NCBI GenBank assembly: GCA_036785375.1
Contig: JAWMAR010000963.1
Location: 310,001-374,000, forward strand
DNA from: Leucoraja ocellata
Lineage: Eukaryota
Reading direction: 5' to 3'
Length of the DNA stretch: 64,000 nucleotides
Shown: positions 2,146 through 54,087 of the stretch, one piece after another
Layout: each line of letters opens with the position of its first letter
Position numbering within the stretch: position 1 is the stretch's first letter
The notes under the pieces: generated by a model
The model's input: the letters and a program-made list of their open reading frames with translations, nothing else
Database searches by the model: none
Told to the model about the DNA's origin: nothing
Program-made: the position numbers and the translations under genes

Positions 2146-2849
2146 GCGAACTTGAGGTATGAAAAGCTACAGAATAAATCAGAGCCCTTATAATGGTTTT
2201 TTGTTGGGTGCAGGGTGGGGATCAGGAGAGACATCACGTTCACGATTAAAGGAGGAGGAAACTTTCAGATCTCATCAAGAAGGTGCGATTAGACATCATC
2301 GTGGGTTCAGCATCTGGAACATCCTGCTGTGATTATGGCTGCACTTCAAGAGTAATTGACAACATAACCAAGTCCGAACAAAATGTGTAATTTGCTGATT
2401 TCTCACCATCTTGTGACTTAAGCAACCTACAAGTTCTCCATTGTCCAGAACCTATATTGATGAAGAGATTTTAACTAATTTTAGCTTCTCTACAGATGCT
2501 CTCTGAATTGCTGATTATTTCTAAGACTTTCTGTTTTTATTGTAAACATGCTAAATAGGTCATTTTGACCACAGTTATCTTGACTAAACTCCTCCCAACT
2601 TGCTTTTTGCAAGGATGCATTCCTCTACAGTCAATTTCTCCATCTCCGTTGCTCCTGTTTCTAGGATGGGGCTTTCCACATCATCCAAGATGTCTTCTGT
2701 ATTTAGTAAATGTGGTTCCACTCCCTGCTGTTGTTGATACATCTTCACCCGTGTCTTCTCAGTCCCCTGAGTGCTGCTCACGCTCCGCCTGCCCCCAGTC
2801 AGAACACAGACAGAGTTCACCTGGTGCTTACCTTGCATGCAAACAGTCT

Positions 2850-3860
2850 GCATGCAACACATCGTTCTCTGCCATTTCTACCACCTTCAACATTTAACAC
2901 CATTCTCCCTTCCCAATCCCTTTTTCCATGGAGACCACTCCCTCCACTAATCCTTGCTTTACTCATCCCTTGCCACGCAAATCGCTCCCTCCTCAGGTTT
3001 TTCCCCTGCAAATGCAGAACATGTGACACCGATCCTCTCACCTCCTCCCTCACCTCCATCCACGGGCCCCCTATCCAGCAGCCCTTTCAGGTGGGACAGA
3101 GGTTTACATGCACCTTTTCAAACCTCATCTGCTGCATTTAGTGCTCACTGTGTGGCATCCTTTAGACCAGGCATTGACTAGGTGACCATTGCACTTGGTC
3201 CACCAAAGCCTGCTGGATTTCCTGGTTGTCAACCAATTTAACTTCCTTTCCCACTCATATGCCTTTCCAGCCTGAGCCTCTTTCAGTGCCAGAATGAGGC
3301 CACACACAAAACAGAGGAAGAGCACATCATTATCCATTTAAGCAGCTTATAGCCCAATGGAATGAATATTGAATGATCAAATTTTAATAACACATCCCCT
3401 TCATTCTCTCTCTTTCCTGCGCCCCTCCTCACCCTGGTGTGCATCCATTTTCCTGCCATCTCGTCCCTCTTTCACCCTCCTCCCCTATCCCCACTCCACC
3501 CCCCTTCCTCCTATATCCCTCCCTCAGGCTTTATATTTTATTCCACTTCACTCCATACCTGACAACCTCTTGTCTCTTTTTCACCTCTTAACTTTGTCTA
3601 CCCATCTGTCAATAAAGAGAGTCAAGAGTGTTCAATTGTCATAAGTTCCAACAACGGAACATTTAAATGAACAATTAAACCTCCCTCACCTGTATCCACC
3701 TATCACTTCCCAGGGTTTGAATTGTTCCCACCTCTTTTCCAGCATTCTTCACCATAACAATTAATCTGAAGAAGAGTCCCGCCTCGAAATGTTGCCTGCC
3801 CATTCCCTCCACAGATGCTGCTCGACCCATTGAGTTCCTCCAGCAATTTGTGTTTAGCTC
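2850..3860 (+). mobile_element. Penelope-like retroelement 3' part (Cys-rich linker, GIY-YIG endonuclease remnant, pLTR)
   Basis: Translation FFPCKCRTCDT..LTSIHGP..PFQVGQRFTCTFSNLICCI fits the PLE Cys-rich/GIY-YIG region; the terminal unit with CTGAAGA starts at 3766. Confidence 0.85.
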
Positions 3861-7836: not shown

Positions 7837-8605
7837 TCCACACACCAATGTTTCTTTCCATTTAGCTTCCATGCCTGAACTGTGCACCATGTCCATGTCA
7901 ACTGCTGTTATGCCTCTCGAACCAACATAACCTGACAAAGAAGCCAAAGTTCCAATGAAAGATCATCAACTTTGCTTCTCACCACAAAGTTGCCGCCTGA
8001 CCTGCTGGGAGTTTACAACATTTCCTGTTTCATGTGATCCATATGATCTGCACCATTTTGCTTTGTTGGTTGAAGAGAGATGTGTGCAGTTTGATTTGTG
8101 TTCAAAAATAACATATAACATTCAGACAAGAGCAATGATTCTCTCCTGGAACACTGCTGACAATGCATGACCTGAGACTAATTTGCTTATAATCTGGCCT
8201 TAAATCATGTGCACCATAATGGGCAAATCTTTTCTGCTGTTGCTCTCTCGTGTGTAGAGGCAGTGATGTTTTATTTCATATTCTTCATTGAACATTAAGA
8301 ATAAGGGTAACTGAGGCAGAGCTTTCAGCGACAATAATTGTGTGCACTCCACTGTCCATCAGTTCCATGATTGTTCCCTGATATGGTTAAGGCAAACTGA
8401 ATCAAACAAGATGCTTTGTGTTCATGCCAGGGACACTGACATTATTATCAGGCATATTACTGCCTTTTGCCGTCAAATATGTTTCAAGGGTAAAGAACAA
8501 GAAGTCAGTTCATATTGTTTCCTCTCTATCTTCTCCAACATCATACTGGGTGAATGGCGAAAACACCTGAGGGAAATTCTCAACAATGAACTTTACTGAA
8601 AGGTT

Positions 8606-8899
8606 AATTTTAGTTTAATTTAGTTTGGAGATACTGTGCTGAAACAGGCCCTTCGGCCCACCGAGTCCGCGCCGACCAGCGATCCCCGCACATTAACACT
8701 ATCCTACACACTAGGGACAAATTACACATACACCAAGCCATTTAACCTACATACCTCTTTGGGAGGAAACCGAACATCCCAAGGAAAACCCACGCAAGTC
8801 ATGGGGAGAATGTACAAACCCCACACAAACAGCATCCCACAGTCGGGATCAAACCTGGGTCTCCGGAACCGCAAATGCTATAAGGTAGCAACTCTACTG
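8606..8899 (-). mobile_element. V-SINE (HE1-like); its 5' tip is displaced to 11402-11421 by a CR1 insertion
   Basis: (TAAAC)n tail, V-domain (reverse complement of gggaggaaacc...aaaacccacgca) and tRNA-like head; the head resumes as tactgctgcgccaccgtgc after the CR1. Confidence 0.9.
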
Positions 8900-11401
8900 G
8901 GAGATTTCAATTTTCCACACATAGACTGGGAAACACATTCTGTAAATGGGCTGGATGGGTTGGAATTTGTAAAATGTGTGCAGGATAGTTTTTTGCAGCA
9001 ATACATAGAAGTACCTACTAGAGATGGGGCGGTGCTGGACCTCCTGTTAGGAAATGAGACGGGTCAGGTGGCAGAGGTATGCATTGGGGAACAGTTCGGG
9101 ACCAGTGATCACAATACCATTAGTTTCAATATAATTATGGAGAGGGTCAGAACTGGACCTAGGGTTGAGATTTTTGGTTGGAGAAAGGCTAACTTTGAGG
9201 AGATGCGAAAGGATTTAAAAGGAGTAAATTGGGACAGTTTGTTTTATGGGAAAGATGTGGAAGAGAAATGGAGGACATTTAAAGGTGACATTTTAAGAGT
9301 ACAGAATTTTTATGTCCCTGTTCGGTTGAAAGGAAATAGTAAAAATTGGAAAGAGCCATGGTTTTCAAGGAAAATTGGACACTTGGTTCGGAAAAAGAGA
9401 GAGATCTACAATCATTATAGGCAGCATGGAGGAAATTAGGTGCTTGAGGAGTATAAAGAATTTAAAAAGAATCTTAAGAAATAAATTAGAAAAGCTAAAA
9501 GAAGATATGAGGTTGCTTTGGCAAGTAAGGTGAAAGTAAATCCAAAGGGTTTCTACAGATATATTAATAGCAAAAGGATAACGAGGGATAAAGTTGGTCC
9601 ATTAGAGAGTCAGAGTGGACAGCTATCTGCAGAGCCAAAAAAGATGGGGGAGATATTGAACAATTTCTTTTCTTCGGTATTCACCAAGGAGAAGGATATT
9701 GAATTATGTGAGGTAAGTGAAACAAGTAGAGTAGCTATGGAAACTATGAGGTTCAAAGAAGAGGAAGTACTGACACTTTTGACAAATATAAAAGTGGATA
9801 AGTCTCCAGGTCCGGACAGGATATTCCCTAGGGCATTGAGGGAAGTTAGAGTAGAAATAGCAGGGCTATGACAGAAATATTTCAAATGTCATTAGAAACG
9901 GAAATAGTGCCGGATGATTGGCGTACTGCGCATGTTGTTCCATTGTTTAAAAAGGGGTCTAAGAGTAAACCTAGCAATTATAGACCTGTTAGTTTGACGT
10001 CAGTGGCGGGCAAATTATTCGAAAGGATACATATAAGTATCCTTATATAAGAAAGAGATAATATATATAAGCATCTGAATAAACAGGGTCTGATTAGGAA
10101 CAGTCAACATGGATTTGTGGCTGGATGGTCATGTTTGACTAAACTTCTTGAATTTTTTGAAGAGGTTACTCGGGAAATTGATGAGGGTAAAGCAGTGGAT
10201 GTTGTATATATGGACTTCAGTAAGGCCTTTGACAAGGTTCCTCACGGAAGGTTGGTTAAGAAGGTTCAATGGTTGGGTATTAATGGTGGAGTAGCAAGAT
10301 GGATTCAACAGTGGCTGAATGGGAGATGCCAGAGAGTAATGGTGGATGGTTGTTTGTCAGGTTGGAGGCCAGTAACTAGTGGGGTGCCACAGGGATCTGT
10401 GTTGGGTCCACTGTTGTTTGTCATGTACATCAATGATCTGGATGATGGTGTGGTAAATTGGATTAGTAAGTATGCAGATGATACTAAGATAGGTGGGGTT
10501 GTGGATAATGAAGTAGATTTTCAAAGTCTACAGAGAGATTTATGCCAGTTGGAAGAGTGGGCTGAAAGATGGCAGATGGAGTTTAATGCTGATAAGTGTG
10601 AGGTGCTACATCTTGGCTGGACAAATCAAAATAGGACGTACATGGTAAATGGTAGGGAATTGAAGAATGCAGGTGAACAGAGGGACCTGGGAATAACTGT
10701 GCACAGTTCCCTGAAAGTGGAATCTCATGTAGATAGAGTGGTAAAGAAAGCTTTTGGTGTGCTGGCCTTTATAAATCAGAGCATTGAGTATAGAAGTTAG
10801 GATGTAATGTTAAAATTGTACAAGGCATTGGTGAGGCCAATTTTGGAGTATGGTGTACAATTTTGGTCGCCTAATTATAGGAAGGATGTCAACAAAATAG
10901 AGAGAGTACAGAGGAAATTTACTAGAATGTTGCCTGGGTTTCAGCAACTAAGTTACAGAGAAAGGTTGAACAAGTTAGGGCTTTATTCTTTGGAGCGCAG
11001 AAGGTTAAGGGGGGACTTGATAGAGATCTTTAAAATGATGAGAGGAATAGGCAGAGTTGACGTGGATAAGCTTTTCCCACTGAGAGTAGGGAAGATTCAA
11101 ACAGGGGGACATGACTTGAGAATTAAGGGACAGAAGTTTAGGGGTAACATGAGGGGGAACTTCTTTACTCAGAGAGTGGTGGCTGTGTGGAATGAGCTTC
11201 CAGTGAAGGTGGTGGAGGCAGGTTCGTTTTTATCATTTAAAAATAAATTGGATAGTTATATGGACGGGAAAGGAATGGAGGGTTATGGTCTGAACACAGG
11301 TATATGGGACTAGGGGAGAATACGTGTTTGGCACGGACAAGAAGGGTCGAGATGGCCTGTTTCCGTGCTGTAATTGTTATATAGTTATATGGTTATATGG
11401 T
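8900..11401 (+). mobile_element. CR1 LINE, 5'-truncated (endonuclease C-terminus + RT), disrupted ORF2
   Basis: GDFN..LDLLL..SDH endonuclease motifs, DFSKAFDKVPH, GVPQGSVLGP and YADD; stops and frameshifts; (ATATGGTT)n tail; TSD tactg at 8895-8899 and 11402-11406. Confidence 0.97.
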
Positions 11402-13624: not shown

Positions 13625-13847
13625 GGTAGGAAAGAACTGCAGATGTAGTTTTATATCGAAGATAGACACAAATGCTGGAGTAACTCAGTGGGACAGGCAG
13701 CATCTCTGGAGAGAAGGAATGGGTGACATTTTGGGTCGAGACCCTTCTTCAGACTGGGGAAGGGTCTTGACCCGAAATGTCACCCATTCCTTCTCTCCAG
13801 AGATGCTCCCTGTCCCGCTGTGTTACTCCGGCATTTTGTGCCTACCT
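13625..13847. mobile_element. Inverted pair of Penelope-like termini forming a hairpin with ~90-bp arms
   Basis: 13661-13750 is the near reverse complement of 13759-13846. Confidence 0.9.
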
Positions 13848-14009: not shown

Positions 14010-14347
14010 GATGAATTGATTAGTATTGATTTAGTCTTGTCCCATGCACCAAGAAATAATGAAAAACTTTATCCAGTCAAATGATACCTATCATGAAGAC
14101 AATCAAACTATATACAATTGGTAGTGCTAAGAAAAAAAAAAGAAACAGAATGCAGAATATAGTGTAACCATGACACACTGCTACATTTACAGGGAAAATG
14201 CAAATAAAAAAAGAAAAAATCCAAGGGCAGCAGCAAATTGGGTTGGGAGTTGAGGAGTAAAACCTGGCTGATGAGAGGTTCCTTCAATCATTTGATAACG
14301 GTTGGTAAGAAGCTGTTCCTGAATCTGGTGGTACATGCTTTCAAACT
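14010..14347 (-). mobile_element. Rex1-like 3' end, decayed
   Basis: aagaagctgttcctgaatctggtggtacatgctttcaaact encodes SLKACTTRFRNSFLP on the minus strand. Confidence 0.7.
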
Positions 14348-14540
14348 GCCTCACCCGCTGAGTTTCTCCAGCATTTTTGTCTACCTTTAATATCATTGCA
14401 GATCGACACAAAATGCTAGAGTAACTCAGCGGGACAGGTAGCATATCTGGAAAGAAGGAATGTGTGACGTTTCGGTCAAAAAACCTTCTTCAGACTAAAG
14501 AAGGTGTAAACCAACATCTGCAGTTCCTTCCTACACACTT
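14347..14540. mobile_element. Penelope-like terminal fragments (tail-to-tail)
   Basis: cccgctgagtttctccagcatttttgtctac followed by its inverse gacacaaaatgctagagtaactcagcggg. Confidence 0.8.
14466..14493 (-). ncRNA. Minimal type I hammerhead ribozyme motif (Penelope pLTR)
   Basis: The minus strand reads CTGAAGA-A-GGTT-TTTT-GACC-GAA-AC-GT-C: complete CUGANGA/GAAA core, stem II and GUC cleavage triplet. Confidence 0.7.
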
Positions 14541-15209
14541 AATATCACAGTAATCAACTGTAATATTTTGAATTTGACATACTGCAACTGTGATGGTCAG
14601 ATAGTGCCTCATGTTAAATGTGAATATTGCTGAGTTTGAGCCATCTTCTCAATAAGCAACCAGTTTTGCTGGCTATAATCAACTAATCTCACCACCTAGC
14701 ATGCGCACTTGAAAACACTGGTATTCAATACTCTATGTAAATCTTGAAAGTAAATCGGCATCACGCCACAGTTTTAATCTGGAAAATCTCAGCAGGAAGT
14801 AACACAGCACAGTCTGGTAAATTAATGTCTGAGCAGGTTCATTTTGAGTCCTTGTGGGCTGTGGGTGGTGAATCTGAAATGAGGAAAAAAGCAATAACAG
14901 ACAAAATTTATAAAATATGAATAGTTCCTGGAATGACAACCTTGAAGGAATCAGTGCGTGTCACGAACAGAAGATTTCATTGGAAGTTAACCATATTGAG
15001 AAGGGGAGAGTGGCGTGATTATAAATTGTTAGCATGAGATTTAAAACCAAATGAGAATGTGGACAAGGAGCCGGTATCTCCATAAACATTATATGTCACA
15101 TGAAGGCCGACAATTCTGTCAAATGGTGTCATATGCTGAAAGCTAACTTGAATCTACCTCCCCTCTGGGTAGAACATGTGCCACCATTGCAACTGACTTG
15201 ATATTTTAA

Positions 15210-15732
15210 AGTATGGTTGGCCCACCGGTAGCCACACACTTTAACTCCGCTTCCCATTCCCATACTAACCTTTCTGTCCTGGGCTTCCTCCATTATCAGA
15301 GTGAGGATACACCAAAATTGGTGGAGCAGTACATCATATTTTGTTTGGGCAGCTTACAACCCAATGGTATGAATAATGATTTTTCTAACTTCAAGTAACC
15401 CTTGCATCCCCTCTCTCTCTATCCCTCCCCCACCCTAGTCATTGTACTAGTTTCACAGTCGTCCTTTTGAGTTTATATAACCCTTTATTACCTAGCCCAC
15501 AGTCTACAATAGACATTGTGGGCTCCACCTTTGCTTGACCATAGTTATTTTTTGCATATCTTTAATTAATTTGTTCTATATCTCTCTATATCACCGTCCA
15601 TAATACTTGTTTCCTTTTCTCCTGACACTCAGCCTGAAGAAGGGCCTCGACCCGCAACATCACCTATTCCTTTTGTCCAGAGATGCTGCCCAACCCACTG
15701 AGTTAATCCAGCTTTTTGTGCCTATCTTTGAT
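15210..15732 (+). mobile_element. Penelope-like element 3' end (GIY-YIG C-terminus + pLTR)
   Basis: PVATHFNSASHSHTNLSVLG...EQYIIFCLGSLQPNGMN; terminal unit with CTGAAGA at 15634. Confidence 0.88.
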
Positions 15733-16272
15733 AAAAGGACAAGCTACATTTAAGTCTAAACTAACCAAAGGGCAACAGAAAGTATTGGGACCAGCATTAT
15801 GTGCAATCTTAATTCAAATAAAAATGAACACTTTTTCATATAGACAATACCAATTTATGGCGCAGTATAAATAAAACGAGGTTAGGAATTAGGAAAGTAA
15901 TTTAACAGCATGTACATTTGTTAGCAATAAGACAAAATAAACTTCTCAATGTATGTGTGTGGTAAAAATAAATCAACCACACAGGCATTTGTTGATTATG
16001 CACTTTATATTTGGTAAGGTTTTATGAGCAAGAAATAATTGTGGACAAATACATGAAATCTAAAATCCCATTACTCCTGATTCCATTCTAAAATAAAATA
16101 ATGATTTCTGTTTTTGATTTGGTTTAAATAATAATAACTCCATGAATGTGATCTAATTTGACAATAATAATCAGCTTTATATAGCACCTTCATTAAAAGT
16201 CCCCATGGTATTCTTTTTTAACATATTAGGAAAAGTAACCAAATGCTTGTCCTGAGGCAGTGTATCTGGGAT

Positions 16273-22719: not shown

Positions 22720-22818
22720 TGATAGACACCAAATGCTGGAGTAACTCAGCAGGACAGACAGCATCTTTGGAGAGAAGGAATGGGCGATGTTTTGGGTCGA
22801 GACCCTTCTCCAGCATTT
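22720..22818 (-). mobile_element. Short Penelope terminal unit with 12-bp TSD
   Basis: tagataacatgt at 22708-22719 and 22819-22830. Confidence 0.85.
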
Positions 22819-23923
22819 TAGATAACATGTAGGATCATCCTGCACCAAGCCATAAGTAAATCATAACTACTGGAATAATTCAGTCTGTCGGCATCATTTG
22901 TGGTAAGAGAAACCTGTTCTCTTACCACAAAATAAAAGAAAAGAAAAGGTAAAGGGGGCTTCCACTGTTACAATCAGTTCTACCATTAGCTGAAGGAACA
23001 TCTTATTTTTTATCTGGGCACTGTACATCCTGCAGGACTCAATACTGAATTCTCCAACCATAGATAACATGCCATTATTTTATTTTCCTTTCATCTGTAT
23101 ATTCTGGCCAGCATGCTCCAGAAAGCCAGACTTCACATCATCACCCACACTTCTGAAGATCAGTAGTCCATTACACAAAGAAACTTAACTCTCCATTCAA
23201 TGACTACATCATTATAGGTATTCCCTTTTTCCACCCATTGCCATCCCCCACCTTCTCTGCTACTTGGGGCAAATTGATTTCTCTCTTCCTCGTTCTAATG
23301 AAGGATGTTTGACCTGAAATCTTGGCTGATTTCTCTCGCCACAGATGCTGCTTAACTGGCTGGTTTCTTTCATCATTTCAGATTTTCTTTCAGATTCCAG
23401 CAACTGGCTCCTGGTGGCTGAATGCACAGTTTTCCCCTCTGCTCCCTGCACTTACCTTTCCTGGATGCTGAGCACCAAATGGGTCATCCTCCTCCATATT
23501 TGAGATGTGCTCAGTGATGGGCCTGTTTCTGTGATGTATCTCTAAAGTAAACTAAACTAAGCTCTGACCTTCACATGTGTGGAAGTCTGAGACTTGTTGA
23601 GATGTGTATGACTGTTATCTGGACGTTTCCTGCAGGTCCACCAAATATTACGCAGTTTGATTCAGCTCAATAAATGAATTAACTAAGTTACTGTACCAGT
23701 TACTGTTCTACGAATAGTAGTGATCAGGTTCCATAAATGTGTTTTTTCTTTAAATGTAGATGGCATGAAAATTATACCAGTGGTGATGTTTTATGGAGCT
23801 ACTTCCACAGTTTGAATATTTCTTAATTATAGAGGAGTGAGGAACTCTAAGTGAATATTGTCTAGAAAGACAACAGGTACCTGGCTATATTGATTACATT
23901 ACAAAAGAAAGGATGAACTATAT

Positions 23924-24014
23924 GTCCCCGGGTTTCGGCCCGAAACGTTGCCTATTTCCTTCGCTCCATAGATGCTGCTGCACCCGCTGAGTTTCTCCAG
24001 CTTTTTTGTGTAAC
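23924..24014 (+). mobile_element. Short Penelope terminal unit with 16-bp TSD
   Basis: aaaggatgaactatat at 23908-23923 and 24015-24030; body gggtttcggcccgaaacgttgcc...ctgagtttctccagc. Confidence 0.88.
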
Positions 24015-26575: not shown

Positions 26576-27159
26576 GGTTGTATAACTCGGTGACACTGAT
26601 TAAACAGAAATCTAAATCATGCTTATAAACTGTTTAAAAATGTTGAGTTTATCTAAGACTTGAAATGCTATTTTTTATATATTTGTATTCATTTTTAGAA
26701 TAGAGGCCAGTATTTATTGCCTTTATCAAAAATATCCTTGTGTTTCTCCATCCTAATGGTGGAAAGAGAAAGGTTTCAGGATTTGAATTCTGGAGTTTAG
26801 GGTATCGCAAAAAGAAGACAGAAACACCAATAATAAATCATGAATATGCAAGAGTTTAGAACAAGTGGGGCAGAGATATTTCAAAGTGTTTTAGGCCTGG
26901 AGGAGATTATAGATCTTGAAAGCAATGCAACCTTGGAAAGATTTGAAAACAAAAATGAGAATTTTAAAATCTACTTAATTTCCAGTCCACGTTGTCAAAC
27001 ACAGGTTGATGGATGAACTGTGAATGGTTAGGATGAGAAGGAGAGATTTGATACCCGTAAATCTACTGAGATTAGAATGATAAGTGTGTTTGACCTACAG
27101 AAAGCAACAAAGACATGGCTAAGTATTTCAACAACATGTGAGCCGAGGCAAAACTAAGA

Positions 27160-27362
27160 TTTAGCACAAAGCACTGGAGTAACTCAGCAGGTCAGGCAGC
27201 GTCTCTGGAGAAAAAGGATGGGTGTCATTTTGGGTTGGGACTCTTCTTTGAAATATCCCCCATCCTTTTTCTCCAGAGATGCTGCCTGACACGTTGAATT
27301 GTTCCAGCATTTTGTATCTATCTTTGGTATAAACTAGTATCTGCAGTTCTTTGTTTCTACAA
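27160..27362. mobile_element. Inverted pair of Penelope-like termini
   Basis: gtcaggcagcgtctctggagaaaaaggatggg and cccatcctttttctccagagatgctgcctgac form an inverted pair. Confidence 0.85.
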
Positions 27363-28262: not shown

Positions 28263-30134
28263 GAAGTCATGGAGATGTATTTACAGAACATTCAGTAATC
28301 TACAAAACATATTTCTTTGCAATTTGCTCCAAGACTGCATTATGCAGATACAGGGGAATAATATTTTTCCAGTCTTCAATGGTGAAGCTTTTTTTCTTAT
28401 TTCTCCAGACCTCCATCCTCTTCTATGTGAATTCTGTTTCACATAAAACAAAGGTAATGATGCTATTAATTTAATCGTCAGTGCATAGTCATCTTATGAA
28501 GGATTCACGCTGAGATTTTGATTTATATAGCACAAGCACACTAAACCAAGACTCCTCAATTACAGATATGTAAAGGAGTAATTGATTAATGTTATTGGAG
28601 CTGCTGAACTGGAAAATTTCATCAACTTTGCTTCCAATTCCCTCTCCCTTGTTTTCACTTGATCCATCAATGAATCTATTTCTTCCTCGGTCCATGTCTC
28701 TCTATCTAAGAACTGGCAGTCATCCAATAATGATTATAACCCCATAATTCAAATAGTCACCTTGGTAATACTTTCTTCCACCTGTTAGGACTCATCACAA
28801 TTTTTTGAATTTCTCATTTTCTGTTCATCATCTGTTCTTATGATTCCACTCTATCTTAATCTTTATTACATCTATTCCCTTGCTGCTGTCATATTTTTTC
28901 TCTGTTCCGGATTGTAGGGTCCCTAAGTGTCTCCATTCCAGTTGGCTTTTCATTCACTGTCATTTCTGCCATTTTTAAATACAGCATTCCCTTCCTTCCA
29001 ATTTGCATTTTAGATAGGCAATGCCCATCTTATAAATCATTATTTCTTCCTAAACTCACTCCCACATCCATGGTACATTCCCAATGCATTTGGAATTAAA
29101 ATGCCAAGTATCCCAAAGATTTTGAGAGGACACTGCTAGAGAGACAGAGGGAGATTGAGAGAGACAGAGAGAGACAGAGGACCATAGAAACAAAGATGCA
29201 CAGAGCAAAAAGGTTATGTGATCCACACTTGGTGGCGGATAGCTTTATGGCGTTGCGATGTGACCTTGATAAACAGTATGGGACAAGATAAAGGTATCTG
29301 GGAATGGCCATTTTGTAAAGGGACCATTTGATGAGAAAGAAAATACGAATAAGCATCAGTACAAATAAAGACTTTCTAGCCTGATAAGGAAAAAAAATAT
29401 GTGCTCTGTTTATTTTGTCCTTGGATGGGTTACAGCTTGAAAATGACTGACTTCAGAGCAATGAGCGCCTTGGGCTAGAATAAAGGCAAAGGCATCATTT
29501 AAAAATTGAAGGAAAAATCATGTCAAAGAAGGGCAAGATGGAGAGTCATGAGTTTGAAGCTCAGAGGGCACTACTGCCCATCAACAGAGTGAATCTAGCC
29601 AATGTATTCACATGGATAGTATCTGAGATCAAACCGCAAGTCTTGTGATTTACTTTGAGTGATCAGCTGGAACAGTAAATCAAATATGAATATATTCAGT
29701 GGTTTACATGCATGCTTAAGTAAGTCAAGTTCTCATGAATAGTAAGTTGTACTAAAACTTGGTTTAGAATCTCTTGTTTGACACGTCAGTTGATACTCTA
29801 TAGTGCCAACACCAAGAAACACAGGAATCCACTGCCTGACTTATACCTTCCTCCCTTCCACAATGTAGAGTTCCAGACAAGTCCTTCCAAATAGAACAAC
29901 AATTTACTAATGCTATTCATTCCTGTATAGAATATTGACTGCTCACAATATGGTGTCTTCTGCAGCAGGAAGACCAAATGGAGATCGGGTGATAATTTAA
30001 CTGAACACCATTTTCCAGGCAGAAAAATGTGATCTTGACCACACAATCACTTGTTATTTTTATTAACTATCCAAATACCAATTTGTCCATATTTTCTTAC
30101 AACATAAACGGATACCATTTGGATCTATCAACTC

Positions 30135-32889: not shown

Positions 32890-34060
32890 AAAAGGAGACG
32901 AGAAGAACTCTGCAGGTCAGGCAGCAACTCTGGAAGCAAAAGATGCATGTCGATGTTTGGGGCTGAAACTCTGCACAGGGAATGCGAAAGATTGCCAGGA
33001 GATAGCAGTATGAAGGAGGGGTGCGACGGCTCTGGTTGAAGATAGATGAGGGGCAGATGAAACCAGTGGGAGGATGTGGAGAGGATTGGAAAAGTGAACA
33101 AAGGGAGAAGAAACCTAGGAGAGTATGTGAGAAACAGATGAGTGTGTGAGGGAGTACAACGGAGGTGTGGGTTACCTGAAATTGGAAAATCCAGTGTTCA
33201 TGTATTGGGTTGCAAGTTGTTTTTTGAGATTGCATTTGGCCTCACTGTAGCCATAGATAAGGCTAGGAACCGTCAGGTCTGTGCAGAAAAGAAAAAGAGA
33301 GTTAAAATTATACGCTACTCATAAATTAAGATGGCCAGTTGCTCTGTAAAACAGTCACCCAATCCACACTTGGTTTTGCCAGTGCTCTGGAGGCCACATC
33401 ATGAACACTAAATACAGTAGACTAGTTTGAAAGATAAGGGGGAACATCTCCTCACTTGGAAGGGCTGTTTATGTCCCTGGATGGGGGTGAGAACAGGTGG
33501 TGAAGGAATAGTTATTACATCTCCTGTGGTTGCAGGGGGAATGTGGGGGAAATGCAGGGGAAATGGGAAGGGATAGCTGGGAAGGGATGAACATGAATCT
33601 GTTTTCCGAAGGTTGTTAAGAGTGCAAGTTCAAAAGGTATTAAACAACTTTATTCCTATTTTACAAGTTGTGAATGGCATGCAAATTCAGAATTTATAAT
33701 ATCTAATATGGATGTTCATAATCCAGATAAAATCGAGATGCGTCCATAGTCCAGGCCAGATTGAGTACCAAATTAGTTTAATGAAGTTGGACGAGAATCA
33801 TTTGAATCATGACCTGGATGGGTTGTTTGTATCCCTCGATGGATGTGAGGGAGAAGGGCTAGGGACAAGTGTTGCATCTCCTACAGCTATGGGAGGGGAG
33901 GTGTGGGTGGGTGGGTAGGACAGAGAGAACCAGGGAGTCTTGGAGAGAGCACTACCTTGAGGCAGCAGAATGAGGTGAGGAGGAGGAGGTGATGGGATTG
34001 GTGTTGGTATTCCGTTGCACTGGTGGAAATGTCGAAGGATAATAAGGTGGATGAAAAGAA
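32890..34060 (-). mobile_element. Decayed Penelope-like fragments
   Basis: Reverse complements of the GIY-YIG region (tgcaacccaatacatgaacactgga; gacacaaacaacccttccaggt-like) and of the terminal unit. Confidence 0.65.
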
Positions 34061-34274: not shown

Positions 34275-34620
34275 TGCTTCAGTGTAGACTAAGCGACCAT
34301 TTCACCGAATGCTTGCGCACTGTCCATCTTGCTGGATCTCTTGGTTACTAACCATTTTAACTTCCCTATCCATTCCTATAGCAATCATTCTTTCCTTGCC
34401 CGCCTCCATTGCCTTAGTGGGGCAATGTGCAAAATGAAGGAACAGCATCTCATATTCTGCTTGGCTAGCTTACAACCCAATTGTATGAACATTGAATTCC
34501 TCCATTTCAAGTAATAGCCTTCCTCTCTTTCTTGTAATCCTTCCCTGCCCCTACCTCACTTTTTCAGCTTTCTCTACCCTACCGATCAATCTGAAGAAAG
34601 ATCCCGACCCAAAATATTGC
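34275..34620 (+). mobile_element. Penelope-like 3' fragment
   Basis: LVTNHFNFPIHS...KMKEQHLIFCLASLQPNCMNIEF; CTGAAGA at 34591. Confidence 0.82.
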
Positions 34621-36564: not shown

Positions 36565-36774
36565 NNNNNNNNNNNNNNNNNNNNNNNNNNNNNNNNNNNN
36601 NNNNNNNNNNNNNNNNNNNNNNNNNNNNNNNNNNNNNNNNNNNNNNNNNNNNNNNNNNNNNNNNNNNNNNNNNNNNNNNNNNNNNNNNNNNNNNNNNNNN
36701 NNNNNNNNNNNNNNNNNNNNNNNNNNNNNNNNNNNNNNNNNNNNNNNNNNNNNNNNNNNNNNNNNNNNNNNNNN
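36565..36774. other. Assembly gap (210 N)
   Basis: Run of n. Confidence 1.
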
Positions 36775-37929: not shown

Positions 37930-40574
37930 TGTAAAATGCATGTAAAAAGGGAACTGCTGTAATCATGGGGGATTTCAATTTTCATATTAATTGGGCAAAC
38001 CAAACTGGGCATGGTAGACTAGAGGAAGAGTTTATAGAATGTATTAGAGACGGGTTCCTAGAACAGTATGTCACAGAACCGACAAGGGGGGAGGCAATCT
38101 TGGATCTGGTCCTGTGTAATGAAGCAGGATTAATTAAAAATGTCATAGTTAGGGACTCGTTGGGAACAAGTGACCACAATATGGTTGAATTCCATATTCA
38201 AATAGAAGGGGAGCAGGTTGAAACTCAGGCTAGGGTGCTTAGTCTAAATAAGGGGGATTATGAAGGTATGAGGACTGAGCTGATCAAAGTTGACTGGGAT
38301 AGCAGACTCAAGAATAAGACGGTACATGAGCAGTGGTGTACGTTTAAGGGTATACTGTATAACCTTCAAGAAAAATTTATTCCTATGAAGAAAAAAAGGG
38401 GTAAGGGTAAGAACAGTCAGCCATGGCTCAGTAAAACTATAAAGGATAGTATTCGGCTGAAGGCAAGGGCATATAAGGTAGCCAGAGATAGTGGGAGGGT
38501 AGAGGATTGGGAAGCATTTAAAGGTCAGCAAAAAATAACTAAGAGATTAATTAAGACGGGGAAAATAGACTATGAAAGGAATTTAGCGAACAACATAAAA
38601 ACTAATAGTAAGAGTTTTTATAGCTATATAAAAAGAAAAAGGGTGGCTAAGGTGAACGTTGGTCCATTGGAGGGTGAGACTGGAGAGTTGTTGGTGGGGA
38701 ACATGGAAATGGCAAAGGCATTAAACGAGTATTTTGTATCAGTCTTCACCATAGAAGACACAAAAAATATTCCAACGCTGGATAAACAGGGGGCGGTAGG
38801 AATGGAGGAGCTAAATACTATTAAGATCACCAAGGAGGTGGTATTAGGGAAATTAATGAGACTGAAGGAGGATAAATCCCCTGGGCCTGATGGATTACAT
38901 CCAAGGGTCTTGAGGGAGTTAGCGGTGGGGATTGTGGATGCATTGGTGATAATTTTCCAAAACTCCCTGGAGGCAGGAACGGTCCCAGTGGATTGGAAAA
39001 TGGCCAATGTAACACCTATATTTAAAAAAGGAAGTAAACAGAAGGCGGGTAACTATAGACCGGTTAGTCTAACATCGGTGGTTAAATGTTAGAGACAATT
39101 ATTAGAGACAATGTTAGAGTGCTCTAACAAATGTTAGAGACAATTAAAGAAACACTAACGGGGCACTTGGATAAACATGACTTCATCGGACAGAACCAGC
39201 ATGGTTTTGTGAAGGGGAAGTCCTGTTTAACGAATCTGCTCGAATTCTTTGAGGAAGTAACAACCCGGGTGGATAAAGGGGAACCAGTGGATGTGGTATA
39301 CTTGGACTTCCAAAAGGCTTTTGACAAGGTGCCACATAAGAGACTATTGCTAAAAATAAAAAATTATGGGATTGGGGGTAATATATTAGCATGGGTAGAG
39401 GATTGGCTAACAAATAGGAAGCAGAGAGTGGGGATAAATGGTTCATACTCGGGATGGCAACCGGTAACTAGCGGGGTTCCGCAAGGGTCGGTGCTGGGAC
39501 CCCAGTTGTTCACAATTTATATAAATGATTTGGAGGAGGGAACCAAGTGTAATATATCAAAATTTGCGGACGATACAAAAATGGGAGGAAAAGTAGGGGA
39601 TGAGGAGGATAGGAAGAGTCTGCAAAAGGATATAGATAAGCTAGGTGAGTGGGCAACAACTTGGCAGATGAAATTTAATACTAATAAATGTGAAGTCATT
39701 CACTTTGGGAAAAAAATGATAGGGCAAGTTATTTTCTAAATGAGGAGGAGCTGCGTTGTAATGCAACGCAAAGGGATCTAGGGGTATTAGTACATGAATC
39801 ACTGAAAGTTAGTATGCAGGTGCAGCAAGCAATCAGGAAGGCCAATGGAGTTTTGGCCTTTATTGCTAGGGGGATTGAGTATAAAAACACGGAGGTCTTG
39901 CTGCAGCTGTACACAGTATTAGTGAGACCACATTTGGAATACTGTGTACAGTTCTGGGGTCCATACTTAAGAAAGGATGTACTAGCCCTGGAGGCAGTGC
40001 AGCGAAGGTTTACAAGATTAATTCCTGCAATGAGGGGATTGACATATGAGGAAAGGTTAAGTAGGCTGGAACTCTACTCTTTGGAGTTTAGAAGAATGAG
40101 AGGCGATCTCATTGAAACATATAAGATCGTGAGGGGCCTTGATCGGGTGGATGCACCGAGGATGTTCCCAATGATCGGGGAAACTAGAACTAGGGGACAT
40201 AGTTGCAGAATAAGGGGGGGCTCTTTTAAAACTGAGATGAGGAAGAACTTCTTCACCCAGAGGGTGGTTAATTTATGGAATTCACTGCCCCAGGAAGCAG
40301 TGGAAGCAGAAACTTTAAATATATTTAAGACTAAAATAGATGTTTTTTTAGCTGCCAAGGGGATAAGGGGCTACGGGGAGAGGGCAGGGATATGGACCTA
40401 GGTATGGTTAGTATAGTAAGACCTGAGTGATCTCCTGGACAAGTGTCGATCGCCTAGATTGGGGTCGGAGAGGAATTTCCCGGATTTTTTTTCCCGAATT
40501 GGACCTGGGTTTTTATCCGTTTTTTTGCCTCCCCCAGGAGATCACAAGGTTCTTGGGGTGGAGAGGGGTGATAG
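37930..40574 (+). mobile_element. Young CR1 LINE (endonuclease C-terminus + RT); two ORF lesions and a missing 3' tip
   Basis: ORFs 37965-39092, 39131-39739 and 39814-40401 with GDFN, SDH, DFQKAFDKVPH and FADD; near-identical to 61229-62567. Confidence 0.97.
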
Positions 40575-42944: not shown

Positions 42945-43225
42945 AACGGTGGTGCAGTCCTTACAGCACCAGAGACCTAGTTTAATCCCGACTACAGGTG
43001 CTTGTACGTTCTCCCCATGTCTGCGTGGGTTTTCTCCGAGATCTTCAGTTTCCTCCCACACTCCAAAGACATACATGTTTGTTGGATAATTGGCTTGGTA
43101 TAAATGTAACATTGCCCTAGTGTGTGTAGGATAGTGTTAATGTGCGGGGATCACTGGTCGGTGCGAACTCGGTGGAACGAAGGGGCGGTTTCTGCACTTG
43201 TATCTCTAAAACTAAAACTCAAACT
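42945..43225 (+). mobile_element. V-SINE (HE1-like)
   Basis: V-domain gtacgttctccccatgtctgcgtgggttttctcc...tcccacactccaaagac; taaaac tail. Confidence 0.92.
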
Positions 43226-43919
43226 CTCACTAAATGACAGTTTCTAATGGTTCTAATTAAGCTTTAGGAGTTTCAGTACGTTTTGCCATGGATATGCATT
43301 AAAAACCAAAACTGTGCTCACATTCTACACTAATTATTTGTCAGAAATACATCCTTTTTTTGTGTTTTGCTTCTTGAGCATAAAGTTGTCTAATATTTTT
43401 TCCCAAAACTCAACCATAGATTCTTGCTCTCATTTCATTCTATGGTTCTATTTTGTTTTAATGCAATGACGGCTGTATTTGTGCAGTTCCTTCTTAGCCT
43501 GTTCGTATAAAAATGAAAGAGACTTATAAATTATATGAAAAATCCATCCATGTTACTGGAAGTTTAGGTGTTGCACTCTATCTATATTACTTTGTGCCAT
43601 ACTTTCCATGCCTTCTTACTAAAGTAATGATGCCCAGAAATGCCAGACATGATAAATAAAACCTGCCTAGAAATTGATTTGTGTAGCTGCTCTTTTTAAG
43701 GGTGTAATATGTAAAATTCCATTACACCCAGAGCAGATGGCTTTAGCAATCTTTTCCAAATGAAATTATACCAATTGTGAAATTGGACCAGGCACTTCAG
43801 TGTGCAGTCCATGACAGCTTGCCTGATCATTTCCTGCTATCATGATGCATTATGACATTTTTTTAATCGCAAAATAGGTGCTAAGGAAATTTGCTCACAA
43901 ATAGCTCACGAAATTTGCT

Positions 43920-44206
43920 CACGCTGCCTTACACCACCAGTGACCTGGGTTCGATCCTGACTATGGGTGCTCTCTATACGGAATTTGCATATTCTTCCCG
44001 TAAACTCCATGGGTTCTCTCCGGCATCTCCAGTTTCCTCCCACATTCCAATGACGTACAGGTTGGTGGGCTAATTGGCTTGGTATCATTGTAAATTGTCC
44101 CTCATGTATAGAGGATAGCATCACTGTGCAGGTAATGGTGGTCGGTGCGGATTCGATGGGCCGAGGGGCCAGTTTCCACGCTGTATCACTAAACTAAATC
44201 TAAACT
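43920..44206 (+). mobile_element. V-SINE (HE1-like)
   Basis: B-box-like gggttcgatcc, V-domain and taaac tail. Confidence 0.9.
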
Positions 44207-44327
44207 CTCCACAACTATTGTAAATCAGTCTCAGTAGACCAAGCACATTTTCATGCTGGCTTATTGATCATCTTGTTTTCTATGGGATATTACAAGTCCT
44301 AACTGGGAAACTTTAGAAATGAATATT

Positions 44328-44632
44328 TTGTTTAGTTTAGACATACAGTGTGGAAACAGGCCCTTTGCCTACCGAGTCCATGCCCACCGACGATCCCCGT
44401 CCACTTTCACTATCCTACACACTAGGGAACATTTAAAATGTTAGCAAAGCCAATTAACCAACAAACCTACACATTTTTGGAGTGTGGAAGAATACAGGAG
44501 CATCCAAAGATGACCCACACAGGTCACAAGGAGAACGTACAAACTGTGTACAGACAGCACCCATGGTCAAGATCGAACCTGGATCTCTGGCACTGTAAGA
44601 CAGCAACTCTGCCGCTGCACCATCATGCTGCC
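44328..44632 (-). mobile_element. V-SINE (HE1-like)
   Basis: Reverse complement of the same family; tttagtttag tail at the left end. Confidence 0.9.
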
Positions 44633-44789
44633 GGTGTAACACTAACACGCATGTAGCTGCAGGGATGGTCTTGTAATGGATACCTAATCACCAATGTTGC
44701 TGGCAGCAATTCATTACAGCAATCAATTACGGGATGACTGTCCATTCACCTGGGGCATGAGGTAAGGACAGGACCAACTACAAAGAGCC

Positions 44790-45740
44790 TATCTCCATAG
44801 ATACATGTTTCTTTCAATACCTATAAGTGTCTCAGTTCTCAGGTCTCGGGTACACAGTCTTGGATCTTCTAAGGGTGCCATCATTGTGACTTTGTGCAGG
44901 GAGACCAACACACACAGGAAATCGCTAATATTGCTGGATTCCCCTAAATGCAGGGAATCATTGACAGTCCGAGTCCCAATAAGGATTTCTGTGAAGAACT
45001 TGGATCCTTGTGCCAGCAGAAAATGTTTCAACTTCCTCAATATAAAGTTTGTAAATTATGATAATTTCCTCATGGTGAATGCCTCGCTTTCACAAAGCAA
45101 CCCAACTCCTTCAACCCATACAAACTGCACTGCCAGGTATTTGATGAAGCTCAGACTGCCTGGAAGATGGATCACAATGAGCCTTGGGTTCATCTCACCG
45201 GTATGCTCTTCAACCATGACGTGGTGCGGCACGGTGGCACAGCAGTAGAGTTGCTGCCTTACAGCGCTAGAGACCCGGGTTTGACGGGTGCTGCCTATAA
45301 GGAGTTTGTACGTTCTCCCCGTGACCTGTGTGGGTTTTCTCCAGGATCTCTGGTTTCCTCCCACACTAAAAAGACATATAGATTTGTAGATTAATTGGCT
45401 TGGAATAATTGCAAATTGTCCTTAGTGTGTGTAGGATAGTGTTAGTATGCTGGTCGGTGCAGATTCGATGGGCTGACAGGGTTGTATCAGCGCTGTAACT
45501 CTAAACTAAACTACAGGTGCAAAAAATATGAAAGTAGCAGGAATGGTGTGGAAAATATCATTAGCCTTTATCACAGAAGACTTAATTGGGTGTCCCAGCG
45601 CAATCTTATATCTCTATGTTGCCCTTTACCCTTTTCTCTCTTCCATATCCATCAAATCAACATCTGGTTTTCCTACCACAGTCCTGCCAGGCTTGTCACA
45701 TTTCCCCCATCTCTTCTGTCATGGTGTGAATTATAATTCA
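44790..45740 (+). pseudogene. Highly decayed PIF/Harbinger (HARBI1-like) transposase relic, split by a V-SINE
   Basis: Ordered motifs LGSSKGA (~SGSFQ), IAGFP*MQGIID (~IAGFPxVxGAID), RKCFNFLNIKFV (~RKGFHSLNVQ), SRNGVENIISLYHRR (~TRxVIERTIGLLKxRF) and YHSPARL (~YSPxRV). Confidence 0.65.
45228..45513 (+). mobile_element. V-SINE (HE1-like)
   Basis: ggcacggtggcacagcagtagagttgctgcc head, V-domain and taaac tail. Confidence 0.92.
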
Positions 45741-50830: not shown

Positions 50831-52083
50831 AGGCGATCTTACATTTGCCAGTGACCGTTGATACAGGCACACCCAAGGCTGACAGGGCAGTGGGCCTCTG
50901 GTTCAACATGAGACGTGTTTTTTGCTAGCACATCCTTGAGGATGGCCTGATTGATGCCCCTGGCTATTATGGTCAAGACCTCGGGATATGGCGTCTCAAG
51001 GCTATTGGTAACATTGTGCAGTTCCTTGTGAAACTTAGAATCTGCCCGGGATGGGGTGTAGACTGCTGGTTAGATAGCCAAAGTGAATTTCCATGGCAGG
51101 GGTAGTGATAACAGTTCACCATAGGATATTCCAGATCCGGGGAGCAGGATCTTGCCAGGACCACTACGTTCGAGCACCACTAGGAGTTAATTAGGAATTA
51201 GATTTCTCCACCCAAAGTTAATATGAATGTCTGCAGAGGAGCAGCAGTTTGAGCAGAGACCGAGTGTACTGGCTGGAAGAAGGGAATCCCAGGTGCATTT
51301 AGGTGCAGGAACTTTATAAAGCCCACCCAGGGGCAGCCTTGAACAATTAACGCAAAGGTCTGCATGGGAGCTTGATTAACGTGGTAATGTCCTAACATTC
51401 CACATGTATCTCTTTACCGAGATCCACAATATTACTGTCCCGGTAGGCCCATTGTTTCTGCCTGCTCCGTCATGCTGAACTTATCTCTTGGACCTTGACT
51501 CTGAACGTATCACCTCAGACACTGACCATATCCTGTCTAGCCTTGTCCACTCCCATCCTACCGAAACCTTGCATGACTTGACAACTGCTGATTCTCGGGC
51601 TCCCACTGCCAAATCTTCACCATAGTGTTCATCTTAAACACCTCCATCCACCACCAGAAGGTCTTTGAGCTCTCCACCTATTTGCTCAACAAAGATCCAA
51701 CTAGTTCCTTTCCATCAACACTCTCAACCACAAGGTAAAATTTACTCTTACCTTGAATAACTTTTATTTTTACTCCTCGTATCCTACAAATCAAAGATGT
51801 CATCATATTGCACTCACATGGGTCTTAGCTATACATGTCTTTTTGTTGGCTATGTTGATGAGTCCCTATTCCAAACCTTCTCTCTATCTCTGTTACACCA
51901 ACAACTGCATTGGTGCTGCTTCCTGCACTCATGTGGAACTCATGTTATTTTCACATGTTATTTTTTATCACCTTTGCTGTTAACTTCCATCCCACTGTCA
52001 AATTCATTTGGACCATTTCTACCATTGCTCTCCCTATTCTGAATTTCACTGACCACCTCAGGACACAAACTATCCATTGGCAT

Positions 52084-54087
52084 TTCAAGTCAAGTCAAGT
52101 CAAGTCAAGTTTATTTGTCACATACACATATGAGATGTGCAGTGAAATGAAAGTGGCAATGCTCGCGGACTTTTGTGCAAAAGACAAACGACCAAACAAA
52201 CTATAAACACAATCATAACACACATATTCTTTTACATAATAAATAATGGAAGGAAAAACGTTCAGTAGAGTTAGTCCCTGGTGAGATAGGCGTTTACAGT
52301 CCGAATGGCCTCTGGGAAGAAACTCCTTCTCAACCTCTCCGTTCTCACCGCATGGCAACGGAAGTGTTTGCCTGACCATAGCAGCTGGAACAGTCCGTTG
52401 CAGGGGTGGAAGGGGTCTCTCATGATATTGTTGGCTCTGGAGTTGCACCTCCTGATGTATAGTTCCTGCAGGGGGGCAAGTGAAGTTCCCATAGTGCGTT
52501 TGGCCGAACGCACTACTCTCTGCAGAGCCTTCTTGTCCTTGGCAGAGCAATTCCCAAACCAGATGGTAATGTTCCCAGACAAGATGCTTTCCACCGCCGC
52601 TGCGTAGAAGCACTGGAGGATCCTCGGAGACACTCTGAATTTCCTCAATTGCCTCAGGTGGTAAAGGCGCTGCCTTGCCTTACTCACGAGTGCTGAGGCG
52701 TGTGATGCCCATGTCACATCCTCGGAGATGTGGACTCCCAGATATTTAAAACAGTTCACCCTATCCACAGGATCCCCATTTATCCTCAATGGAGTGTACG
52801 TCCTCGGATGATGTGCCCTCCTAAAGTCCATGATCAGCTCCTTCGTTTTTTTGATGTTCAAGAGGAGGCTGTTATCCTGGCACCAGAGTGCTAGACCAGC
52901 CACCTCCTCCCGGTAGGCCTTCTCGTCATTGTTTGAGATCAGGCCCACCACCAAAGTGTCATCAGCAAACTTAATTATTGAGTTGGAGCTGAACCTAGCC
53001 ACACAGTCATGTGTGTACAGGGAGTACAATAGGGGGCTGAGGACGCAACCCTGGGGCGATCCTGTGCTCAGGGTGAGGGACTTTGATGTATTCCCTCCCA
53101 TCTTGACTACCTGGGGCCTGGCGGTGAGAAAGTCCAGGACCCAGGCACACAGGGAGGTGTTGAGCCCCAATTCCATTAGCTTCCCGGCCAGTCTGGTGGG
53201 GACTATCATGTTGAAGGCTGAACTGTAGTCTATGAACAGCATCCTCACGTAGCCCCCCTTCTGGCTGTCCAGATGGGAGAGAGCGGGGTGCAAGACCTGG
53301 GAGACCGCATCGTCCGTGGATCTGTTCGGACGGTATGCGAACTGCAACGGGTCCATGTTCCGAGGGAGGAAGGTGCAGATGTGATTCTTCACCAGCCTCT
53401 CAAAGCATTTCATGACTACCGAGGTAAGGGCCACCGGACGGTAGTCATTCAGACAGGCTGGGGAGGCGTTTTTTGGTACCGGTACAATGATGGATTTTTT
53501 GAAGCAGGCAGGGTCCACGGACTTGTCCAGGGAGAGGTTGAATAACGTAGTGAGCACTGGAGCTAGCTGCGTAGCACAGGACTTGAGTACTCGCCCCGAG
53601 ATGCCATCGGGGCCTGCAGCTTTTCTCGTGTTCACCCGTGTCAGAGCCCTCCTCACGTCGTGCTCGGACAGCGAGAATGTGTGCACATTCCTCCCTTCAG
53701 CTTCGGTAGCCAGCCCGCTGGCGGTATTGTCGATAGTCGGCAGACCTGGAGTGGTGTTGCCCCTCTCAAAACAAGCGTACAAGGAGTTCAGATCATCAGC
53801 TAGGGAGGTGCCGGCATTTGTGGATGAGGGAGGGGTGCTCCGGTAGTTGGTTCCAATCCGTAGCCCCTGCCACAGGCTTCTGGTGTCCTGCTGCTCCATA
53901 TGTAACTCCATCTTGTCTCTGTATCTTCTGTTTGCGTCCTTCACCGCCCTTCGCAGTCGGTAAGACTCTGCCTTGTAGACGTCCATGTTTCCTGATGCCA
54001 GGCCCGAGTTGTAGGCAGTGGTGCGAGCATTCAGGGCCACACAAACAGACCTGTCTACCCAGGGTTTTTGGTTCGGAAAGGTGCTTA
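52084..54087 (-). mobile_element. Young Rex1/Babar LINE, 5'-truncated
   Basis: (CTTGA)n tail at 52084-52110; open RT frame; the 5' end breaks at TFPNQKPW. Confidence 0.97.
52271..54040 (-). CDS. Rex1-type non-LTR reverse transcriptase (589 aa, uninterrupted, lacks endonuclease)
   Basis: KAAGPDG, NDYRPVALTS, LQFAYRPNRST, IDYSSAFN, GSPQGCVLSP, KFADD, FKYLGV. Confidence 0.92.
   Translation of the reverse strand: MALNARTTAYNSGLASGNMDVYKAESYRLRRAVKDANRRYRDKMELHMEQQDTRSLWQGLRIGTNYRSTPPSSTNAGTSLADDLNSLYACFERGNTTPGLPTIDNTASGLATEAEGRNVHTFSLSEHDVRRALTRVNTRKAAGPDGISGRVLKSCATQLAPVLTTLFNLSLDKSVDPACFKKSIIVPVPKNASPACLNDYRPVALTSVVMKCFERLVKNHICTFLPRNMDPLQFAYRPNRSTDDAVSQVLHPALSHLDSQKGGYVRMLFIDYSSAFNMIVPTRLAGKLMELGLNTSLCAWVLDFLTARPQVVKMGGNTSKSLTLSTGSPQGCVLSPLLYSLYTHDCVARFSSNSIIKFADDTLVVGLISNNDEKAYREEVAGLALWCQDNSLLLNIKKTKELIMDFRRAHHPRTYTPLRINGDPVDRVNCFKYLGVHISEDVTWASHASALVSKARQRLYHLRQLRKFRVSPRILQCFYAAAVESILSGNITIWFGNCSAKDKKALQRVVRSAKRTMGTSLAPLQELYIRRCNSRANNIMRDPFHPCNGLFQLLWSGKHFRCHAVRTERLRRSFFPEAIRTVNAYLTRD

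Follow-up and report, generated by a model that had tools for sequence, protein, structure and literature searches.

The question raised by this locus is whether a short motif in a Leucoraja ocellata contig is the ribozyme of a Penelope-like element (PLE), and whether it could still cleave. The motif lies on the minus strand at positions 14466-14493 of the window, by which we mean the whole 64,000-nucleotide stretch of DNA that was analysed. Its sequence, CTGAAGA-A-GGTT-TTTT-GACC-GAAAC-GTC, was confirmed exactly as given by an earlier sequence-only reading. All hammerhead core bases are present, in the form of a minimal type I hammerhead with CUGAAGA, an extra A after A9, GAAA, the palindromic ACGU and C17. 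Helix II is GGUU/GACC, 4 bp with a loop of 4 nt, within the range of 3-7 bp and 3-10 nt used as criterion, and the extra base between A9 and 10.1, the G10.1-C11.1 pair and the palindromic positions 15.2/16.2 are those of PLE minimal hammerheads (min-HHRs). The predicted cut falls between 14466 and 14465. With its entire helix I the motif extends over 14464-14495 (−), where GU at 14494-14495 pairs with AC at 14464-14465 for 2 bp only. The core elements CUGANGA and GAAANNUH were found in the focal copy, in 3766 and in 58627 (3 of the 21 copies extending across the GAAA box), and also in the majority sequence of 10 main-subfamily copies, from which the focal copy differs at 14 of 93 positions.

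The focal copy had been described as fully intact. This did not hold, since the core is predicted to pair with a fold-back arm and be hidden by it, and helix I is 2 bp in both the focal copy and the majority sequence, below the 3-bp minimum of the published search descriptor. PMC4209133 accepts variants with a 2-bp helix I that were found by hand, and the focal site is therefore filed with those variants and not as a descriptor match. The published search pattern for min-HHRs, by Cervera and De la Peña (2014, PMC4209133), was re-coded and scanned over the 64-kb window. Without a helix I requirement it gave three sites (3766+, 14493− and 58627+), and in 200 first-order simulated windows the same pattern gave a mean of 0.11 and a maximum of 2. 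Two sites were left when helix I was set to at least 2 bp, and at the published minimum of 3 bp the sole site was 58627. The idea that the focal copy is the best one was thus overturned, as 58627 alone passed the descriptor. The copy at 58627-58654 (+) has all core bases, a helix I of 3 bp, helix II GGGU/ACCC and helix III AUAU. A stricter pattern fitted to the family found the same three sites (3766, 14493, 58627) and none in 100 shuffles, and a looser pattern gave 4 window sites against 1.47 ± 1.07 expected. Because the three descriptor-core sites descend from related copies, they make up a single item of evidence and not three independent ones. An Rfam search of the window returned five matches at E≤5, none of them a hammerhead; one of them, MIR2118 at 13680-13827, was below its gathering score and was rejected because the site is a fold-back pair of units and not a microRNA. 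Pattern matches outside the window (1 and 0 in viral sets, 9 in metagenomes, 0 in prokaryote genomes) were also set aside as chance, none of the 10 loci fitting the family profile.

An nhmmer search with a profile of the terminal unit built from 7 seeds returned 27 matches in the window at E≤1 and 25 at E≤0.004, on both strands; 7 of the matches are the seeds themselves. An additional decayed copy at 54498 was found by eye and was not reported by nhmmer. The copies named in the sequence-only reading (3766, 13725-13752 on the minus strand, 58627, 23930, 2100-2127 on the minus strand, 15634 and 34591) all exist, but their number had been undercounted, about 25 being present. The one at 13725-13752 (−) is there, but its G12 is changed to A. 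The copy at 3766-3793 (+) has all core bases with a helix II of 3 bp and a helix I of 1 bp, and lies 366 nt past a GIY-YIG remnant. Decayed motifs are at 15634-15661 (+; A13C, G16.2A), with pyrimidine-rich native sequence upstream, at 2100-2127 (−; A15.1U), with the native upstream sequence CTGACTCTCAG, at 34591-34618 (+; G12A) and at 54498-54525 (+), and a heavily decayed one is at about 32952-32979 (−). A truncated or chimeric copy with G12A occupies 22786-22813 (−). The insertion at 23930-24014 (+) is a solo, young-looking one that starts at stem II, has both core CpGs intact and is flanked by direct repeats of about 16 bp, read as a target-site duplication. An older subfamily is represented by a motif at 23295-23323 (+) and by a remnant at 7945-7974 (+), in which helix I is 7 bp (CAAAGUU/AACUUUG) and the GAAA box is deleted. 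Head-to-tail tandem units with complete hammerheads were absent, all 25 matches at E≤0.004 being solo or inverted, and two intact cores in tandem were not found in the window, nor was a complete ORF flanked by tandem pLTRs. Two DNA-like contig runs covered the unique sequence of 14340-15790 about 20-fold and, in run X1, the unit 1-7 million-fold, which is no copy number and indicates a very abundant repeat.

The assignment to a Penelope-like element was borne out by the coding remnants next to the units. When the remnant at 2596-3201 was translated with X at stops, it matched two of 303 candidate proteins, those of whale shark and bamboo shark (E 5e-15 and 9e-10). These best matches point to a cartilaginous fish as the probable host. 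Both shark proteins carry RVT_1 and GIY-YIG matches; they are partial, and the RVT_1 scores were under the Pfam cut-off and GIY-YIG was over it in one of the two. Pfam gave no match on the decayed remnants themselves. Mapping with the two shark proteins and a 17-protein profile located six PLE remnants: RT thumb, linker and GIY-YIG with stops and frameshifts at 2587-3400 (+), the GIY-YIG C terminus at 15225-15395 (+), a weak one at 22960-23061 (+) followed by the older-subfamily motif at 23295, linker and GIY-YIG at 33130-34029 (−) followed by the motif near 32979, the GIY-YIG C terminus at 34332-34511 (+) followed by 34591-34618, and RT in two parts (51436-52126 and 54175-54285) at 51436-54285 (+) followed by 54498. 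The last is interrupted by a LINE-type RT on the opposite strand. A unit on the same strand was found 80-366 nt downstream of 6 of 6 remnants, and random points had a unit within 400 nt in 7.9% of cases; two of the six associated copies (32979 and 54498) were located by searching downstream of remnants. With a same-strand copy less than 400 nt downstream of every RT/GIY-YIG remnant the Penelope-like assignment holds, and the core, the remnants and the position of the unit together support a minimal type I hammerhead in a Penelope-like terminal repeat.

The order expected of EN+ PLEs, RT followed by a C-terminal GIY-YIG with CCHH cysteines, was seen through the decayed remnants, which match such proteins, and 5′ truncation, an inverted 5′ copy, an optional tail of 30-40 bp and a target-site duplication were all seen in the window. 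The linker motif C-x4-C-x2-C is present in the relatives P0002 and P0003 and partly in the window remnants. According to Craig et al., a C-x2-5-CxxC zinc finger in the linker occurs in Neptune and Nematis and is absent from Penelope/Poseidon, and by that criterion the linker of the relatives excludes Penelope/Poseidon. Of the two, Nematis is less favoured, as the PLE groups given for vertebrates in bioRxiv 10.64898/2026.07.22.740005 are Neptune and Poseidon. The element is thus probably a Neptune, a call made from the linker motif and not from a tree. A weak match to the PLE RT profile (E 0.015) also lies at 28504-28707 (+). Inside the PLE RT remnant at 51436-54285, the minus strand carries a 606-aa open LINE-type RT frame at 52271-54091 (RVT_1 plus ALKBH8_N).

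The focal unit is a 5′-truncated terminal repeat (pLTR) at 14400-14495 (−), with private changes at 14418, 14439, 14445, 14452 and 14463. It is continued by a fold-back arm at 14495-14505 (+), in which the CUGAAGAAGG core is repeated in inverted form around 14494, and by the optional 3′ tail of the family, about 35 bp, at 14503-14537 (+), which here lies 5′ of the unit in inverted orientation. Among the best-supported junctions are reads that link 14503 with 14400 or with 14405, the strands being opposite, and heterogeneous loose ends occur at 14537, 14400 and 14405. A second unit, a 3′ fragment of the subfamily of 23930, stands tail to tail with the focal one at 14346-14392 (+), with loose ends before 14346. 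Nearby, at 13670-13836, two units form a fold-back pair with arms of 83 nt that are 90% complementary and 1 nt apart (centre 13753), the minus arm having G12A and the plus arm a damaged CUGA box. The inversions at 13753 and 14494 are independent and share the centre base 2.1 in the native TCAG-T-CTGA quasi-palindrome. Two further head-to-head pairs of units, at 27149-27335 and 60666-60838, are joined within the motif (A6, stem II or G12). Inverted 5′ copies, an optional tail of 30-40 bp and palindromic junctions are published hallmarks of PLEs.

The places where short copies begin bear on the RNA from which they were made. Read by eye, nine short-copy junctions start within the CUGA box, within stem II or at G12, all of them 5′ of the cut site; two further copies begin far 3′ of it, and none begins at it. 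Short copies that begin 5′ of the cut site make it likely that the insertion templates were uncut, so the window insertions were likely copied from RNA not cleaved at the predicted site. In run X1, 645 contigs had heterogeneous loose ends before 15634 (the equivalent of C3) among the best-supported entries. These are a hint of a genome-wide 5′ breakpoint hot spot, but such clipping may also come from the local mismatches at 15627 and 15633.

Predicted folding did not favour the ribozyme form of the focal copy. In 81 nt of context the pair probabilities of helix II and helix I were 0.0, the CUGAAGA box was mostly paired, and the best fold had −19.3 kcal/mol against −3.1 kcal/mol for helices I and II. 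A 51-nt piece was predicted to form a 10-bp hairpin (−12.5 kcal/mol). The double-hammerhead fold had −4.5 kcal/mol for the focal copy (best dimer −23.7 to −38.5), −6.1 kcal/mol for the majority unit (best dimer −26.5) and −3.8 kcal/mol for 58627 (best dimer −27.9), and even in 58627, the best copy, helix I was predicted not to form. Such energies omit tertiary contacts and help from protein, and therefore rank the copies better than they predict activity. The focal copy is predicted by these folds to be a fossil in which the active ribozyme fold is not expected.

Pairing in stem II had been taken to be kept by compensatory changes. That it is mostly paired was upheld, with 86% of helix II cells paired in 9 copies and 75% in 19 copies, far above slid registers, but the excess over shuffles was modest, 28 of 500 and 12 of 500 shuffles respectively reaching the observed value. 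Compensation itself found no support: pairs changed on both sides numbered 3 in 9 copies (1.5 ± 1.0 in shuffles, 80 of 500 reaching 3) and 6 in 19 copies (4.6 ± 1.1, 110 of 500 reaching 6), the older subfamily being off by one register in the 19-copy alignment. The changes cited earlier, U-A in the focal copy and A-U in 3766, are single instances each. Family reads differ from the focal copy at 5 or more positions, and few of them align across the focal stem II (X1 depth 19,494 at 14478 against 228,356 at 14463). The focal stem II looks like private decay that happens to pair, though it may instead belong to a minor subfamily. The helices of the older subfamily are better support for a selected fold, with a 5-bp helix II AGGUC/GACCU at 6956 and the 7-bp helix I at 7945-7974, and they are suggestive only. 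A run of 7 pairs occurs in 0.13% of random position pairs, and 11 copies were inspected with the register adjusted by one base, which limits what the 7-bp helix can show. In the majority sequence of the 10 main-subfamily copies helix I is 2 bp and the third pair is mismatched; position 1.3 is C, opposite A, in about 87% of the first-mate-plus reads of run X24 (2369 of 2715).

Most copies had also been supposed to be inactivated by CpG decay in GAAACG. CpG decay is indeed strong: in 10 main-subfamily copies, chosen by eye from 24 aligned matches, 24 of 74 CpG cells had changed against 80 of 801 others (p=7e-7). However, the clearly lethal site is C11.1pG12 and not the CpG of GAAACG. G12 is the general base of the hammerhead, which is why a change in C11.1pG12 is a clearly lethal hit; among 21 copies spanning the GAAA box G12 was G in 12, A in 8 (7 of them after C) and C in 1. 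The CpG of GAAACG was changed in 16 of the 21, positions 15.2/16.2 being CG in 3, TG in 5, CA in 8, TA in 3 and other in 2, and 8 of the 16 (TG, TA) could still pair in a palindromic helix III. TA keeps the palindrome and occurs in natural motifs reported in PMC4209133. These 21-copy counts leave out the copy at about 7943, whose GAAA box is deleted, and 54498, whose anchor is one base off. Outside CpGs, 3 of 75 core cells (4%) had changed against 66 of 609 downstream (11%; p=0.068). This lower rate may reflect weak constraint on the core, or else the hand-set start points and the mixing of sub-subfamilies.

RNA reads were available from a relative, with 5 differences in a unique piece of 643 nt, and the libraries were not of a kind built to capture cleavage ends. 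No pile-up of RNA ends at the predicted cut site appeared among the best-supported entries in either of the two runs (oligo-dT or single-cell, mixed loci), which is a weak test. In the single-cell run X22, 2127 reads among the best-supported ones had poly-T loose ends before 15548, in an A-rich stretch at 15548-15600 and antisense to the PLE. They are most likely due to internal oligo-dT priming and possibly mark an antisense polyadenylation site.

At 2128-2150 (−) and 15610-15633 (+), a pyrimidine tract, CTGAC and a CAG that ends one base before the hammerhead core follow each other, an arrangement that resembles a 3′ splice site abutting the short helix I. Its spacing from branch to AG, 8 nt, is short. 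No splice joint at the core was present among the best-supported entries listed. In D. virilis Penelope an intron has its 3′ end in the 5′ strand of helix I (PMC4209133). By extension, the ribozyme might be switched by splicing: helix I would be crippled (2 bp) in unspliced RNA only, splicing would supply the end of an exon with which helix I could grow longer, and spliced RNA would be cut, leaving unspliced RNA as the template for insertion. We regard this as a long shot. If true, it would explain both the retention of introns by PLEs and the uncut templates.

Taken together, the focal site very probably holds the minimal type I hammerhead motif of a very abundant PLE, likely a Neptune, in a terminal repeat that is truncated and inverted, the copy itself being a fossil. 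By analogy with published PLE ribozymes, two units of an intact tandem parent element would pair through the ACGU palindrome, likely aided by the protein of the element, and would cut weakly after GUC or GUU. The insertions in the window, judged by their breakpoints, would have been copied from uncut RNA and would then have decayed without demonstrable selection on the core. With a helix I of 2 bp in the dominant subfamily, its cleavage is likely weak or vestigial. A stronger version, in which RNA-only dimeric self-cleavage would be the processing step of the family and 14466-14493 would still be competent with a compensated stem II, agrees with the complete core bases and ACGU palindrome of the focal copy, with the older subfamily and its different helix II (6956) and one 7-bp helix I, and with PMC4209133, which gives PLE motifs with a 2-bp helix I (D. 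virilis, Culex) and Schistosoma dimers that cleave weakly. It is improbable nevertheless: the fold-back arm is predicted to bury the focal core, the best dimers far outweigh the double-hammerhead fold, the copies are dispersed and lack a tandem partner, two-sided changes stay within the range of shuffles, the starts of short copies lie 5′ of the cut site and the dominant subfamily has a helix I of just 2 bp. In addition, only one of nine Xenopus retrozyme dimers cleaved in vitro (bioRxiv 10.64898/2026.07.22.740005).

A tentative alternative, which we hold rather unlikely, is that the dominant subfamily lost cleavage, the motif being a vestige that overlaps transposition signals (fold-back priming, splice acceptor, RT start), and that the family expanded without it. 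The mismatch at the third pair of the majority helix I, the C opposite A at 1.3 in most X24 reads and the longer helix I of older subfamilies point that way, as does the report that Naiad PLEs multiply although they lack canonical hammerheads, where the motif's role is described as unclear. Yet all catalytic bases, the extra A, G10.1-C11.1 and the palindrome persist in the majority sequence of the 10 copies, an odd outcome if the motif had long been out of use, and the active Penelope of D. virilis has a 2-bp helix I as well (PMC4209133). That an ordinary repeat resembles the hammerhead consensus by chance is hardly credible. The missing Rfam match and the weak covariation would suit it; however, three descriptor-core sites against 0.11 expected, though not independent, lie exactly where PLEs carry the motif and match the consensus published in PMC4209133 letter for letter. 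The preferred reading, a fossil hammerhead motif in a PLE terminal repeat, adds a probable cartilaginous-fish Neptune family to the list of PLEs with hammerheads.

The idea of dimeric cleavage is not new. It is the model published in PMC4209133, which describes the dimer, the extra base after A9, a palindromic helix III without loop, dispersed single copies and pairs on opposite strands, and the window family is a further case of this known architecture. Shared with the PLE min-HHRs of that paper are CUGANGA with the extra base, G10.1-C11.1, GAAA-N-N-U-H, the palindromic 15.2/16.2 and the lack of loop 3, as well as the position in a terminal repeat 3′ of RT/GIY-YIG and the occurrence mostly as dispersed singles with some close opposite-strand pairs. 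The differences are a helix I of 2 bp in the dominant subfamily, against a descriptor minimum of 3 and 4-5 in Schistosoma, and a helix II of 4 bp. Cartilaginous fish were absent from Table S1 and Figure S3 of PMC4209133 in the portions seen. D. virilis Penelope, as described there, shares the 2-bp helix I and the extra base after A9. Its intron ends at helix I, and in the window units a pyrimidine tract, CTGAC and CAG directly precede the core as a putative splice acceptor. The D. virilis motif differs in that its helix III has a palindromic insertion of 2 nt, its helix II is bulged with 6 bp and its helix I is G-C rich.

The Poseidon element PAc of Anolis carolinensis (Frangieh et al. 2024, PMC11167929) likewise has a pLTR hammerhead, a tail that is optional between its two 3′ ends, a cut site at which RNA-seq shows no ends, and insertion from uncut RNA, the last being only deduced in the window family. 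In that study, the Anolis ribozyme cleaved only with the protein of the element, and uncut RNA was the dominant insertion template. PAc differs in its clade and in having a tested, active protein-assisted ribozyme, whereas the window family shows a linker zinc finger of the Neptune/Nematis kind and is represented by decayed copies only. Non-LTR retrozymes (bioRxiv 10.64898/2026.07.22.740005) carry their type I hammerhead in short units that lack coding sequence and stem from PLE pLTRs, as here, but they form head-to-tail tandem arrays, whereas the window copies are solo or inverted. That preprint reports hammerhead retrozymes in one chondrichthyan genome.

A very abundant family can thus escape standard searches, as it was missed by Rfam and by the published descriptor, the latter missing the dominant subfamily because its helix I is 2 bp. 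The contrast between this subfamily and the older ones, with up to 7 bp, would bear on whether PLEs need hammerheads, the question of PMC8557442. No account of the hammerhead motif of this PLE family was found in a literature search in which subscription papers were poorly covered. Lünse et al. may describe short-helix hammerhead variants.

Other repeats were also seen in the window. LINE endonuclease/RT ORFs, which we take to be CR1-like, lie at 8624-11313, 37935-40401 and 61204-62394, all on the plus strand, with Pfam matches to Exo_endo_phos_2 and RVT_1. The translation of 39694-40401 is identical to that of the end of 61204-62394, which indicates a young LINE family. A run of 210 N (an assembly gap) at 36565-36774 stands beside a poly-G tract, and inverted SINE-like repeats with tRNA-like boxes are clustered at 43021-45401.
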